Shown: piece after piece, positions 28,650 through 55,817 of the stretch
Layout of the letters: every line of letters begins with the position of its first letter
Numbering within the stretch: position 1 is the stretch's first letter
Assembly (NCBI GenBank): GCA_964016885.1
Contig: OZ024740.1
Location: forward strand, 411,556,001-411,620,000
Source: Eledone cirrhosa
Taxonomy: Eukaryota
Direction of reading: 5' to 3'
Length of the DNA stretch: 64,000 bases
The notes under the pieces: generated by a model
What the model was told of the DNA's origin: nothing
Seen by the model: the letters and a program-made list of their open reading frames with translations, nothing else
The model's database searches: none
Program-made: the position numbers and the translations under genes

Positions 28650-30345
28650 TTTATTAAAATAACAGATTAAAGTTTAAGCAAAGAATCGCTGCTTTCACCC
28701 TTAACGGGATCTTCTGAAACTAACAAAGTCAATCTGTAAACGCAGAAGTTCATATTTAAAAAAAAAACGTTGCAACCGGAGGAAGACAGGAAGACGATAC
28801 TTTGGTTCGTGGTAACATTCCCTGGCAAAGAACGGGAAAAAAGGAATATAATACGTCATTAATAGGAGCGGTGAAAAACAATTACGCGCAAAGACAGAAC
28901 CACGTTTATGGTATAAAAGAAGTCGTATACTAATGTTCTCTTAGGTGGTTCATAGAGACGTTCTCTGGCAATGAACGAAAAAACGAAGATAATACGTCGT
29001 ATGTGGACCGTGGAGAACAATTGCACGCAAAGACAAAACCACGTAAATTGTATAGCTGAAGTCGTAGACTAAAATTCTAACTAGGAAACCGAATGAATCA
29101 CCGCTCCAGAGTTAAGACTAAAGTAAATAAAATACAATACAGAGGTAATAGAAATTAAATAAATACATACACGCTTACAAATACGTACATACACAAGCAT
29201 ACGCGAAAAGACTTGCCATAGGTATATAAAACCACGCACATATAAATATGTGTGTGAGTGTGTGCGTGAATACAAATAAATAAATAATTGTAGTTAGTGC
29301 TAACTGTAATTGTAGGAATCGGGTTGATTGCCCTCTATCCCGGAAATGCCTCTCTAGTCACATTGTCTACAAATGTAAGGTTGAAACACCCACGTCCCGT
29401 AGGGCCTACATAGGGTTAACCGCCAATAGATTCAAGCAACGTCTTTTCATGCATACCCATTCTTTTCGTTACCCTCTAAGAAGGAATATGACGTCACTTT
29501 CAGCTTATATCTGGAGTCTAAAAGACAACCACACCCAATATAAGTTACACTGGGAGATCCTAGCTAGGACTAGATCGTATAACGGAAATAAAAGACCATG
29601 TGACCTCTGCGCCGTTTATTTAATTATTTATTTATCTGTATACACGCACGCACACACATATTTATATGTGCATGGTTTTGTATACCTATGGCAAGTGTTT
29701 TCGCGTATGCTTGTGTATGTACGTATTTGCATGCGTGTATGTATTTATTTAATTTCTATTACCTCTGTATTGTATTTTATTTACTTTAGTCTTAACTCTG
29801 AAGCGGAGATTCATTCGGTTTCCTAGTTAGAATTTAGTCTACGACTTCAGCTATACCATTTTCGTGGTTTTGTCTTTGCTTGCAATTGTTCTCCACACTC
29901 CACATATGACGTAATATCTTAATTTTTTCCGTTCATTGCCAGAGAACGTCTCAATGAACCACCTAAGAGAACATTAGTCTACGACTTCTTTTATACCATA
30001 AACGTGGTTCTGTCTTTGCGCGTAATTGTTTTTCACCGCTCCTATTAATGACGTATTATATTCGTTTTTCCCCGTTCTTTGCCAGCGAATGTTACCACGA
30101 ACCAAAGTATCGTCTTCCTGTCTTCCTCCGGTTGTAACATTTTTTTAAATATCCACTTCTGCGTTTACAGATTGACTTTGTTAGTTTCAGAAGATCCCGT
30201 TAAGGGTGAAAGCAGCGATTCTTTGCTTAAACTTTAATCTGTTATTTTAATAAATTTTTGCTCTACGTTTCTTATATATTTGATATATATTTATCCCTAT
30301 CGAGCCCTCTTTGGATTTTAGTCTTCAAATTTATTATTATTACTA
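28650..30345 (+). mobile_element. Hairpin PLE insertion, family 2: ~640-bp inverted arms around a GIY-YIG fragment
   Basis: 28651-29290 inverted to 29615-30253. Centre translates CNCRNRVDCPLSRKCLSSHIVYKC..AYIGLTANRFKQR..H..F..TSLSAYIW..PCDLCA. Unpaired tail 30254-30345; (TA)n on both sides. Confidence 0.92.
30183..30233 (+). ncRNA. Variant type I hammerhead-like motif (A4; U-U at base of stem II)
   Basis: AGTTT CAGAAGA TCCC-gttaa-GGGT GAAA GCAG-cgattct-TTGC TT AAACT. Identical minus-strand copies at 28671-28721 and 51494-51544. Confidence 0.6.
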
Positions 30346-30843
30346 TGTATATATATATATATATATAGGCACACACACACACACACATATATATATATAT
30401 GTATAAATATATATATATGTGTGTGTGTGTGTATAAGTCCATGTATTTTGAATATCTAATGATTATACGGTATGTTTACGAATAAACATTTTAAAGCATT
30501 TAGCTATGAATTTAGGAAACTTGGAATAGCGCCATCTAGTGAATTCCCGCACAACCAAGTGGGGACTACCGGTGATCGTTCAGACTGATGGTCGTTTTCA
30601 AGTCAGTGCTAAAGGCTTTCAAATATTTATTCGTAATCATACCGATAACATAAGATATACAAAATACACACTTTTATATGTCTATAGCTATGATAGAGCG
30701 AACAATTTAACTCTCTCTCTCTCTCTCTCTCTCTCTCTCTCTCTCTCTCTCTCTCTCTCTCTCTCTCTCTCTCTCTCTATATATATATATATATATATAT
30801 ATATATATATATATATATATATATATATATAGGAACCAGTAAG

Positions 30844-30937
30844 ACCCCGACAGCTGAGCTCAAGCCGTTTCGACGGCTAATTCTGGACTAAATGAAAATT
30901 TATCCTGGTATTTAAATAGCCGATCTTCTCAAGGGGT
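30844..30937 (-). ncRNA. Type I hammerhead ribozyme (U3-A8), inverted-arm copy, sense to the host pre-mRNA
   Basis: Reverse complement of 34535-34628. Confidence 0.8.
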
Positions 30938-32217
30938 AATTCCATATATGATCAAAGTGATTGTCAAAAATCAGTAGTAATTCTGTGATTGCACATCAGT
31001 AGGGGAGATGGTGGCTAAACCTGCCAGTAGGAGAAAGTAGGGGAGGGGTGGAGTAGACCCAATCAAGCGTTGGTAGTGCCAGCTACAGCTGGGCATGAGG
31101 TCAAAGAAGATACTGGGGAGGGGGAGGGGGAGGAAGTCGGAACGGTAGGTAGAACAATGGGGGGTAAAAATATATATGAAAGAAAAAATACTGAGAGTGA
31201 AGAAAAGCGAATAGGTGTAAAGAAAAAAAAAAAAAAAAAAAAAAAAGTAAAGCAAGTTCTACGACCTAGGTCTCTAGCTATTGTTAGGCTAGAATAAATA
31301 AATAAAGAAAGAAAGAAAGAAGTAAAGAAAGAAATAAAGAAATAACGAAATAAGTAAAAGAACTAGGTGGGACGGATTAGGCAAGGACCCTTTTAAGAGG
31401 TATAAGTACGTAAATGATACGGTGACGGGTCAACAAAAGGGGCCAAAATACTAAAGAGACTACCACGAAATAAATAATAAAGGTTTCTATCCCGGGCACA
31501 ATGCCAGCAACCACCCAGTGCAGCAAAGTGAACTAGTACGAGATAATAATTCTGAGTCCCGAAAAAAAAAAAAAAAAATATATATATATATATACTAATG
31601 CTAACTCTAAAAGATCTAAAACAAGCTACATGAAAGTTCGTACGAAGTAAAGGTAGAATACGGAAAAATAAATTCAGAATCCACCCCGCCCAAAAGAAAA
31701 GCGAAGAAAGAAATACTGAAACGAAAGAATAAGGCATAAGTGCCACTAAGAAATATAGAAGGCACGGAGAATAGTGGGAGTGGTCGGAAAAAGGGGGCAA
31801 GTATCCGGGGTCTAAACCAACTGCTATAAAAGGCGGAGTCCGCCAAATCTATCATAGACTAGGGGAGGGGGTAGGGGTACTAAGGCTACAAGGGGCCAAA
31901 GGGCAGCCTCGGGTGGGCGAGAAAAGACGCCGACAAAGGAGAAGAGCTGGGGTAGAAGGAATAAGGAGAGATGGGGGGGGGAGAAATAAAGGAAGCGATA
32001 AAAGAATAAAAAGAAGATCTTACGTCTCCCTTGGCAAGCAGGGGTTACCCATTGCAAAATCGGCAAGTGGGGTGTTATAGCCCTAGTCTACCCCCCCGGG
32101 TCATTATGGGGTTTGAGGGCGAGGTAAGTCCTACGCAATCTATGTTTACATGCAGTAACCAGTTCATCGTTCTTGTTTAGGAGTTGGTCCGTCGAAAACA
32201 GCATTTGTAAAGTTTCG

Positions 32218-54897: not shown

Positions 54898-54946
54898 TAG
54901 CTCTGACGAATCCTACGGTTACGTAAGGAAGAAACATTGTAAGCCA
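54898..54946 (+). ncRNA. Minimal type I hammerhead-like motif (CUGACGA) near the 3' end of a probable PLE remnant (~54055-54990)
   Basis: GCT CTGACGA ATCCTACG-gtta-CGTAAGGAA GAAA C-ATT-G TA AGC; element flanked by (TA)n. Confidence 0.65.
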
Positions 54947-54989
54947 ATAAAAATCTTTTGATGTTGTAGACGCTCTTGTGTTCTTTTTC

Positions 54990-55596
54990 ATATATATTAT
55001 ATATATATATATATATATATATATATATATATATATATTATATATATATATATATATATATTATATATATATATATATTATATATATATATTATATATAT
55101 ATATATATATATTATATATATATATATATATATTATATATATATATATATATATTATATATATATATATATATATTATATATATATATATATATATTATA
55201 TATATATATATATATATATATTATATATTATATATATATAATATATATATATATATATATATAATATATATATATATAATATTATATAATATATATATAT
55301 ATATAATATATATTATATATATATATATATATATATATATATATATATATATATATATTATATATATATATATATATATATATATATATATATATATATA
55401 TATATATATATATATATATATATATATTATATATATATATATATATATATATATATATTATATATATATATATATATATATATATATTATATATATATAT
55501 ATATATATATATATATTATATATATATATATATATATATATATATATTATATATATATATATATATATATATATATATATATATATATATATATAT
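54990..55596. repeat. (TA)n microsatellite
   Basis: Direct inspection. Confidence 0.97.
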
Positions 55597-55817
55597 AGGA
55601 ACGAGTAGGACCCCGACTGCTGAGCTCAAGCCGTTTCGACGGCTAATTCTGGACTAAAAAAAAAAAAAAATTATTTTTTAGTCCAGAATTAGCCGTCGAA
55701 ACGGCTTGAGCTCAGCCGTCGGGGTCCTACTCGTTCCTATTACCCACTCTACTACCCTAAGTATTGAGTACTTTGGTGCGTTATGCTCCACTTGGTTCCT
55801 TACCACATTTCCTTCGT
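55597..55817 (+). mobile_element. Minimal hairpin insertion, PLE family 1
   Basis: 55597-55662 inverted to 55674-55738 across an A/T loop, followed by the 79-nt family tail. Confidence 0.9.

Follow-up and report, generated by a model that had tools for sequence, protein, structure and literature searches.

Why do Penelope-like elements (PLEs) enter (TA)n microsatellites as an inverted arm, a body, a second arm and an unpaired tail of fixed length? This question is raised by a 64,000-nucleotide stretch of the Eledone cirrhosa genome (G000:C1:411556001-411620000; genome size 3.0 Gb), hereafter the window, the sequence of which contains abundant (TA)n and (CA)n. Insertions in the window were checked by masked self-comparison and by reading of the sequence, and copies of one family, family 1, were located by exact sequence patterns in the genome. 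Except for family 6 and the genome-wide counts, all samples come from contig C1, the contig of the window. Our results suggest, with a probability of about 65%, that one RNA provides two fixed sites, A and B, at which both ends of a (TA)n break are extended, and that the two complementary DNAs (cDNAs) are joined head to head.

A first-pass annotation of this DNA had listed seven insertions with a common arm-body-arm-tail layout. All seven were found at the coordinates listed below; they fall into four families, range in size from 186 bp to 3.9 kb, and show an architecture that is general across the genome. The entries are real, but those at 51126 and 48620 are opposite ends of one insertion. 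The (TA)n described on both sides is present in general, but not at 27728, where the arm side is bordered first by (CT)n and then by (TA)n. The size series was rightly judged informative for the mechanism. Family-1 positions are numbered from the predicted hammerhead cut at window position 34623. The family-1 features are:

30832-34720, plus strand: 3.9-kb insertion of a family-1 PLE assigned to the Hydra clade, A end left, B end right, head-to-head junction 32216/32217
30832-32216, minus strand: A arm of this insertion, from site A (+17) to about -1340
32217-33411, plus strand: 5'-truncated open reading frame (ORF) with the 3' half of the reverse transcriptase (RT), a CxCX5C linker and a GIY-YIG endonuclease with CxxC and CxH
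34535-34628, plus strand: predicted type I hammerhead ribozyme, core TTGAGAA, predicted cut after 34623
34554-34587, plus strand: TATA-like box (34554-34563) and initiator-like TTAGTC with its A at 34583 (-41), a putative transcription start
34641-34720, plus strand: 80-nt tail from site A to site B, starting with TAT and containing the A hairpin ACTC…GAGT
48620-51125, minus strand: 2.5-kb insertion, B end 48620, A end 51125, internal deletions
53175-53360, plus strand: short A+B copy of 186 bp, inner ends -44/-34, ending ~5 nt before B
55598-55817, plus strand: short A+B copy of 220 bp, A/T run added at the junction

In family 1, insertion termini lie at two fixed points, A at +17 and B at +97. 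As had been noted, the arm stops at the same base (GTTCC followed by TAT) at 30832, 51125 and 55598 and, in a fourth copy (53175), at the corresponding position, leaving a common tail of 79-80 nt that begins 17 nt past the predicted cut. Exact matches genome-wide number 54,367 for a family-1 22-mer and 34,705 for a 30-mer of the tail. The sequence up to A continues into TATATAT 19,889 times and into the tail 19,889 times, an exact equality that is partly chance. Of the first 100 tail matches listed, 96 stop at B (+95..+102) and pass into (TA)n, three stop earlier and one runs into the ORF. The proposed fixed outer breakpoint at a target-matching TAT is borne out. The proposed (TA)n targeting is likewise upheld: at least 8 nt of TA adjoins 89/90 A ends and 87/90 B ends of young family-1 copies, compared with 1.6% of window positions. 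The TA tracts at A and B ends do not clearly differ in length (p 0.18; p 0.04 in a second set), which lends no weight to the idea that TA is added at one of the two. No target duplications outside the TA tract were evident in 90 copies. Insertion leaves two TA tracts, so a feedback on (TA)n abundance is possible.

Three observations concern the flanks. Ten of the 90 young family-1 copies lie inside a TA tract that ends another PLE insertion (L233, L236, L256, L259, L278, L279, L294, L301, L308 and L318). At L014, L227/L228 and L245 the flanks beyond the TA tracts are mutually inverted over up to 48 nt, and at L023/L024 a 23-nt direct repeat is found in the flanks outside the TA tracts.

Two types of end also occur in the other families, which are represented in the window by the following features:

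28651-30343, plus strand: family-2 Hydra-type insertion, A end 28651, 90-nt tail up to the B end; within it an endonuclease fragment (29305-29613, 51% to family 1) and a ribozyme-like sequence (30184-30232)
51384-52057, minus strand: family-2 B arm, no partner arm
42231-44516, plus strand: family-3 Hydra-type insertion, A end 42231, tail of about 89 nt up to the B end; within it an endonuclease C-terminus (42759-42992) and a ribozyme-like sequence (44323-44385)
27727-27932, minus strand: family-4 short A+B copy, B end 27727, A end 27932, then (CT)n, then (TA)n

Thirty family-2 loci gave 14 A ends, 14 B ends and two rearranged cases; 30 family-3 loci gave 18 A ends and 12 B ends, and 25 family-4 loci 11 A ends, 13 B ends and one truncated copy. 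Site A had been tied to the ribozyme, but its distance to the predicted cut depends on the family, ranging from 17 to about 150 nt (17, 25 and 49 nt in families 1-3, 43 nt in family 5, more than 100 nt in families 4 and 6). In longer family-4 copies a ribozyme-like motif is located upstream, and no linked ORF was found among the 25 loci of this family. Between arm and flank, 11/12 family-4 A ends carry a (CT)n of variable length (window 27933-28030; L325-L345), and in 13 family-4 read-through copies the corresponding CTCTATA is unexpanded. This (CT)n may reflect either telomerase-like RT slippage at initiation or later expansion.

The ends are also seen in raw reads. In restriction-site-associated DNA (RAD) reads from three other samples, 2,771-3,176 loose (TA)n ends were counted at A and 8,198-11,517 at B, read depth falls more than 100-fold beyond B, and the raw short reads of the same samples contain joints with a strand switch at the inner end. 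A 23-fold drop at the left edge is seen in run X1, which lacks a pile of read ends at the AATT site; the drop in runs X22-X24 was not used, being confounded by read ends at the AATT site L056:3856. Among contigs labelled as other organisms, B is present in X5, X6 and X8 and A in X5, and X7 has neither. Since raw reads of other samples carry both ends and joints, the assembly fold-back artefact that the first-pass annotation had allowed for is excluded.

How do the two ends combine within a copy? Among short family-1 copies that are bounded by TA and have two scored arms, 97 are A+B, one is B+B and none is A+A; 67 further segments outside this count are single arms, fragments of long copies or copies missed by the script. 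A second set consists of young copies selected for an A end with an inverted partner of whatever type. The partner is B-type in all 92 of them, stopping at B in 90 and reading on in two; this set comprises 92 of 100 places listed, out of 3,577 matches, and 14 of the 97 overlap with it. Long copies with both ends located are A+B in 10/10 cases, with either arm the longer; family 3 pairs A+B in 7/7 and family 2 in 3/3 plus one chimera. The first 100 tail matches, classified partly by eye, comprise 80 short and 6 long A+B copies, one B+B, seven single arms with TA on both sides, three single arms with other flanks, one internal repeat, one case in which the partner was not reached and one complex case.

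The junctions between the arms are diverse (93 classes in 97 copies; 72 strings in 92 young copies) and, as nearly all of them differ, the short copies represent separate events. It is hardly credible that the short hairpins are a non-autonomous family derived from a few master hairpins, or assembly fold-backs. Certain junctions do recur three to five times, but the number of junction classes and the finding of an identical junction in different subfamilies argue against masters, and the ends and joints in the raw reads of other samples argue against fold-back during assembly.

The first-pass annotation had proposed a different route, in which a single cDNA started at B folds back and is joined late to the second target end at an internal TAT close to the ribozyme. 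Most short copies are indeed palindrome-like, and family-1 A is a TAT located 17 nt from the cut. However, 13/97 short copies have a B arm that goes no further than +14, opposite an A arm with its end between -13 and -48; such a B arm contains almost none of the sequence of the A arm, which makes fold-back impossible for these copies. Moreover, the A arm can exceed the B arm by kilobases (it is the longer one in L056, L037 and L137), the junctions are mostly asymmetric, and the family-dependent distance to the ribozyme does not fit. Fold-back is thus refuted as the general route by the non-overlapping arms; it could still explain a minority of copies, and as an account of the whole it is very improbable.

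The two arms of one copy belong together. They are of the same subfamily in all 63 informative cases, and 38/54 are identical, compared with a mean of 9.2 and a maximum of 16 after shuffling. Among the first 100 tail matches, five copies are long/long, one is mixed and about 80 are short/short. The common subfamily and the common long/short state of both arms point to one template.

What marks the two sites? Tandem copies reveal the sequence past B, which is TAT in families 1 and 2 and ATAT in family 3. In addition, a hairpin-folding motif, RCTC…GAGY, lies 6-10 nt 3' of both A and B in families 1, 2, 3, 5 and 6, at a chance rate of 0.13% of window positions. Site A, which had been taken as the only special site, is therefore not alone, as B also has TAT after it and the same hairpin. 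The stems are ACTC/GAGT or GCTC/GAGC and covary between these forms; the family-1 A stem is intact in 117/126 copies, with no compensatory change within family 1. When the motif was used to predict B, 24/25 family-5 loci ended there and 6/7 family-6 loci ended within 2 nt, the remaining locus in each case reading through; one family-6 A arm stops at the predicted A. The spacing of A and B is 80, 90, 94, 164 and 184 nt in the motif-bearing families and 40 nt in family 4. The tail thus corresponds to the distance between two copies of the signal.

By eye, the motif is present in 4/6 published new Hydra consensus sequences (PMC8557442 File S7), from coral, sea-cucumber and copepod elements: Hydra-2_Amil, Hydra-1_Ajap (twice, in tandem), Hydra-2_Ajap and, as GCCC/GGGC, Hydra-1_Crog. 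Hydra-1_Obim and Hydra-1_Amil have only parts of it. Here and below, PMC8557442, PMC11167929, PMC2377424, PMC3846280, the retrozyme preprint and the Octopus vulgaris annotation are cited from extracts. Another explanation is that the ends are set at the DNA level, in line with a proposal for the PLE tail: cDNA would begin elsewhere, and the endonuclease would trim or resolve an intermediate at A and B. The PLE tail was ascribed to endonuclease resolution by Craig 2021 (PMC8557442), and earlier work cited by Frangieh 2024 (PMC11167929) found the tail to be required for endonuclease recognition. We consider this quite unlikely, since the motif is a covarying hairpin located 3' of each end, and since reverse transcription of a lizard PLE was shown in vitro to start at two sites that bound the tail (PMC11167929).

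The inner ends of the arms are also limited. None of 181 scored young arms extends beyond -45, with peaks at -41/-40 and -37..-35, and short copies have inner ends at -45 to -31. When compared with the general initiator and TATA consensus, A(-41) lies within an initiator-like TTAGTC, 29 nt downstream of a TATA-like TATTTAAATA. The next base after the arm end is G in 26/37 arms at A(-41) and 10/16 at A(-36), compared with 20/109 elsewhere (p about 1e-9). Among junctions with untemplated bases this next base is G in 14/19, and where both arms end at -41, 7/7 junctions start with C or end with G, the single-base cases doing so by definition. From this sequence pattern we infer a capped transcription start cluster at -45/-41/-36. 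Full-length L1 insertions carry an extra G as the mark of the cap (PMC11702581) and, by analogy, the G at the inner ends is likely the trace of an RNA cap. An RNA starting there would lack the 5' half of the ribozyme.

Alternatively, two-ended priming may hold but the inner limit may be set by stalling of the RT at the hairpin of ribozyme stem II. A weak hairpin over -58..-37, the sequence-derived nature of the start cluster, and family 2, where an initiator-like TTAGTT coincides with the pile-up and TATA is missing at -30, speak for stalling. It appears unlikely, as the extra G occurs at two pyrimidine-purine steps, the limit at -45 is hard, a TATA-like box lies 29 nt before A(-41), the stronger stem III does not usually stop the RT, and copies that read into the ORF likewise start at -38 and -44. 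Ribozyme-cleaved RNA was rejected as the main template, as only ~2/97 B arms end at +1/+2.

In L380, L381 and L140 a segment starting at -40, -44 and -41, respectively, directly follows internal element sequence (+918, +213 twice, -723). The tandem units with internal joins are:

L381:714-1374
L380:6335-7496
L140

Such partial tandems may have arisen when the RT jumped from the cap to a different position.

The two-ended priming that we favour could proceed as follows. The GIY-YIG domain may cut both strands of (TA)n, and two reverse transcriptases are predicted to dock on the two tandem RNA hairpins, so that each 3' end (…ATA) would pair with UAU at A or B. Where the template is a capped promoter transcript, synthesis would end at the cap after 60 nt for one cDNA and 140 nt for the other, and the result would be the 190-bp hairpin with a tail that dominates among the products. 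Read-through or circular RNA, or RNA copied after a jump to its 3' end, would offer no 5' end at this place; both cDNAs would then be long and could give kilobase copies and partial tandems. The 3' ends of the cDNAs would finally be linked by host end-joining, at short microhomology or with small insertions. For the Hydra clade at large, we put at even odds an obligate two-ended target priming in which a hairpin present twice, conserved from coral to cephalopod, docks one RT per copy with telomerase-like UAU pairing, cap run-off resembles a strong stop, and a jump to the 3' part of the RNA regenerates the pseudo-long terminal repeat (pseudo-LTR). If true, the tail, the inverted arm, the partial tandems and microsatellite targeting would be explained by a single mechanism.

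Several points weigh against two-ended priming on one capped RNA. Ten of the first 100 tail matches are single-arm copies. Subfamily concordance could reflect the time of activity or gene conversion, and perfect A+A or B+B palindromes could vanish after insertion. Family 4 shows no obvious hairpin copy, and sampling relied largely on a single contig. The start cluster is derived from sequence, the G signal is weaker in an older mixed set (T 15, C 12, G 6, A 2), and bases derived from the partner arm raise the null expectation for G to 0.44 (p 0.001). The in vitro start sites of the lizard element are not homologous to the cut DNA, in contrast to the TA match at both sites here (PMC11167929). 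The model also needs strand displacement, as -41..+17 would be copied twice on one RNA. Finally, a few copies have discordant arms (e.g. hit 65), and in L184/L185 a family-1 A arm is fused to a family-2 hairpin and B end.

Discordant arms and the cross-family chimera would be accommodated if each broken end were primed on a separate RNA in an asymmetric two-RNA complex. No segment would then be copied twice, and the self-complementary stem III could dimerise the RNAs. On the other hand, the long/short state is common to both arms, and two free RNAs offer no obvious reason for the 97:1:0 pairing. We regard separate RNAs as improbable, and priming of both ends on one RNA remains the preferred explanation.

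To which PLEs do these elements belong? Locus L056 carries an intact ORF of 719 aa with an RT followed by a C-terminal GIY-YIG endonuclease, including DIESYY, YRDD and YIG at 606. The ORF at 32217-33411 is 97% identical to it over 400 aa; the region 32218-33432, previously annotated as the GIY-YIG domain, does include the endonuclease but also covers the 3' half of the RT. The endonuclease pieces of families 1, 2 and 3 are 97%, 51% and 35% like the L056 ORF. This ORF has RWR at 37 (one change from RWK), DKT at 117 (DKG to DKT being the Hydra-clade change), CNCPDRSIC at 572 (CxCX5C), CNLC at 670 (CxxC) and CKH at 698 (CxH), and by eye lacks CCHH. A Pfam search of the element ORFs gave no match. 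Stems I-III of the predicted hammerhead fold, and TTGA.AA is kept with N7 variable; the family-1 core TTGAGAA is presumably a U3-A8 variant. Rfam returned only chance microRNA matches, with no hammerhead among the 150 of 194 matches listed. The preference of 89/90 and 87/90 ends for (TA)n is as in the Hydra clade. The family-1 unit of ~3.6 kb, owing to a 1.2-kb 3' untranslated region, exceeds the Hydra-clade length of under 3 kb, which is itself qualified as 'generally' (PMC8557442). By their sequence motifs, the elements are new members of the Hydra-clade PLEs, which bears out the earlier PLE identification.

Other assignments were ruled out. Naiad/Chlamys PLEs have an N-terminal endonuclease and no canonical hammerhead, whereas the endonuclease here is C-terminal. 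The short copies are neither miniature inverted-repeat transposable elements (MITEs) nor short interspersed nuclear elements (SINEs), as such elements have one internal sequence and junction in common, compared with 93 junction classes in 97 copies here. Non-LTR retrozymes are defined by head-to-tail repeats with a complete hammerhead in each (retrozyme preprint); the short copies are joined head to head and do not contain the 5' half of the predicted ribozyme. L1-type twin priming does not apply, both sites being fixed and internal and poly(A) being absent.

The tail, the inverted 5' copies and the (TA)n bias of PLEs are already published (PMC8557442), and the origin of their inverted arms, tails and pseudo-LTRs is named as an open question (PMC8557442, PMC2377424, PMC11167929). 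Hydra-1_Obim and Penelope-13_HM share with the elements here a C-terminal endonuclease with CxCX5C, CxxC and CxH, the DKT, a hammerhead near the 3' end (predicted in the elements here) and (TA)n targets, and an inverted 5' copy is recorded for Penelope-13_HM (PMC8557442). The L056 ORF resembles Hydra-1_Obim as judged by eye, but has RWR in place of RWK, and the family-1 ribozyme differs (by eye). Compared with the published Hydra clade, the ~3.6-kb unit is long, and tails measure 80-184 nt here versus 30-40 nt (PMC8557442).

Poseidon PAc of the green anole (Frangieh et al. 2024, PMC11167929), the lizard element above, matches the model proposed here in its two internal RT starts that bound the tail, cutting and extension of both strands, AT-rich targets and a requirement for sequence 3' of the start sites. 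Its ribozyme cleavage is dispensable and it is predicted to be dimeric. PAc belongs to another clade, and the extracts of that paper contain no assignment of one site per end and leave the inverted arm unexplained. In L1 twin priming, both break ends also prime cDNA, the cDNAs are joined head to head and an extra G is found at the cap; there, however, a poly(A) end and a variable internal site are used and the cDNAs barely overlap (PMC11702581), whereas here both sites are fixed, internal and marked by the motif, and one segment is copied into both cDNAs. An internal promoter in the pseudo-LTR (putative here) and the inverted 5' copy are shared by Penelope of Drosophila virilis and Pen2a of Adineta vaga, which also show partial tandems and have a 31-37 bp tail (PMC2377424, PMC3846280). 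Their inversion was attributed to self-priming on an antisense template (PMC3846280), as opposed to the two sense-RNA cDNAs indicated here.

The A+B pairing rule and the twin hairpin are not described in the literature searched, which was open-access (subscription papers, e.g. Evgen'ev and Arkhipova 2005, fell outside the search). The extracts of the text and supplement of PMC8557442 contain neither these nor cap run-off products, and such products are not described in the extracts of the retrozyme preprint or the Octopus vulgaris annotation. New here are the TA match and hairpin at both A and B and the A+B pairing; the mechanism is a testable variant. Given the very high number of products, the intact L056 ORF and the short RNA signal, a (TA)n substrate and a template of 250 nt allow it to be tested. 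The mechanism has, in addition, a bearing on how PLE reverse transcriptase relates to telomerase. For annotators, the abundant 190-bp palindromes are PLE products rather than MITEs or SINEs.

The window holds further sequences of related or other origin. Another GIY-YIG frame, a PLE-like fragment, is located at 24126-24719 (plus strand), and PLE-like 3' ends with hammerhead-like motifs ahead of (TA)n are found at 52364-52516, 52980-53133 and 54903-54989. Nested inverted duplications at 23259-23679 and 47587-48550 contain pieces of family 2, a tail that is diverged but similar to that of family 1, and another repeat, AT-rich and palindromic. Three decayed non-LTR retrotransposon copies with endonuclease and RT frames occupy 12099-21280 and 60900-64000 (minus strand). 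An exon at 46537-47304 (minus strand) resembles, as judged by eye, a nicotinic acetylcholine receptor subunit (Cys-loop, YxCC, membrane helices).

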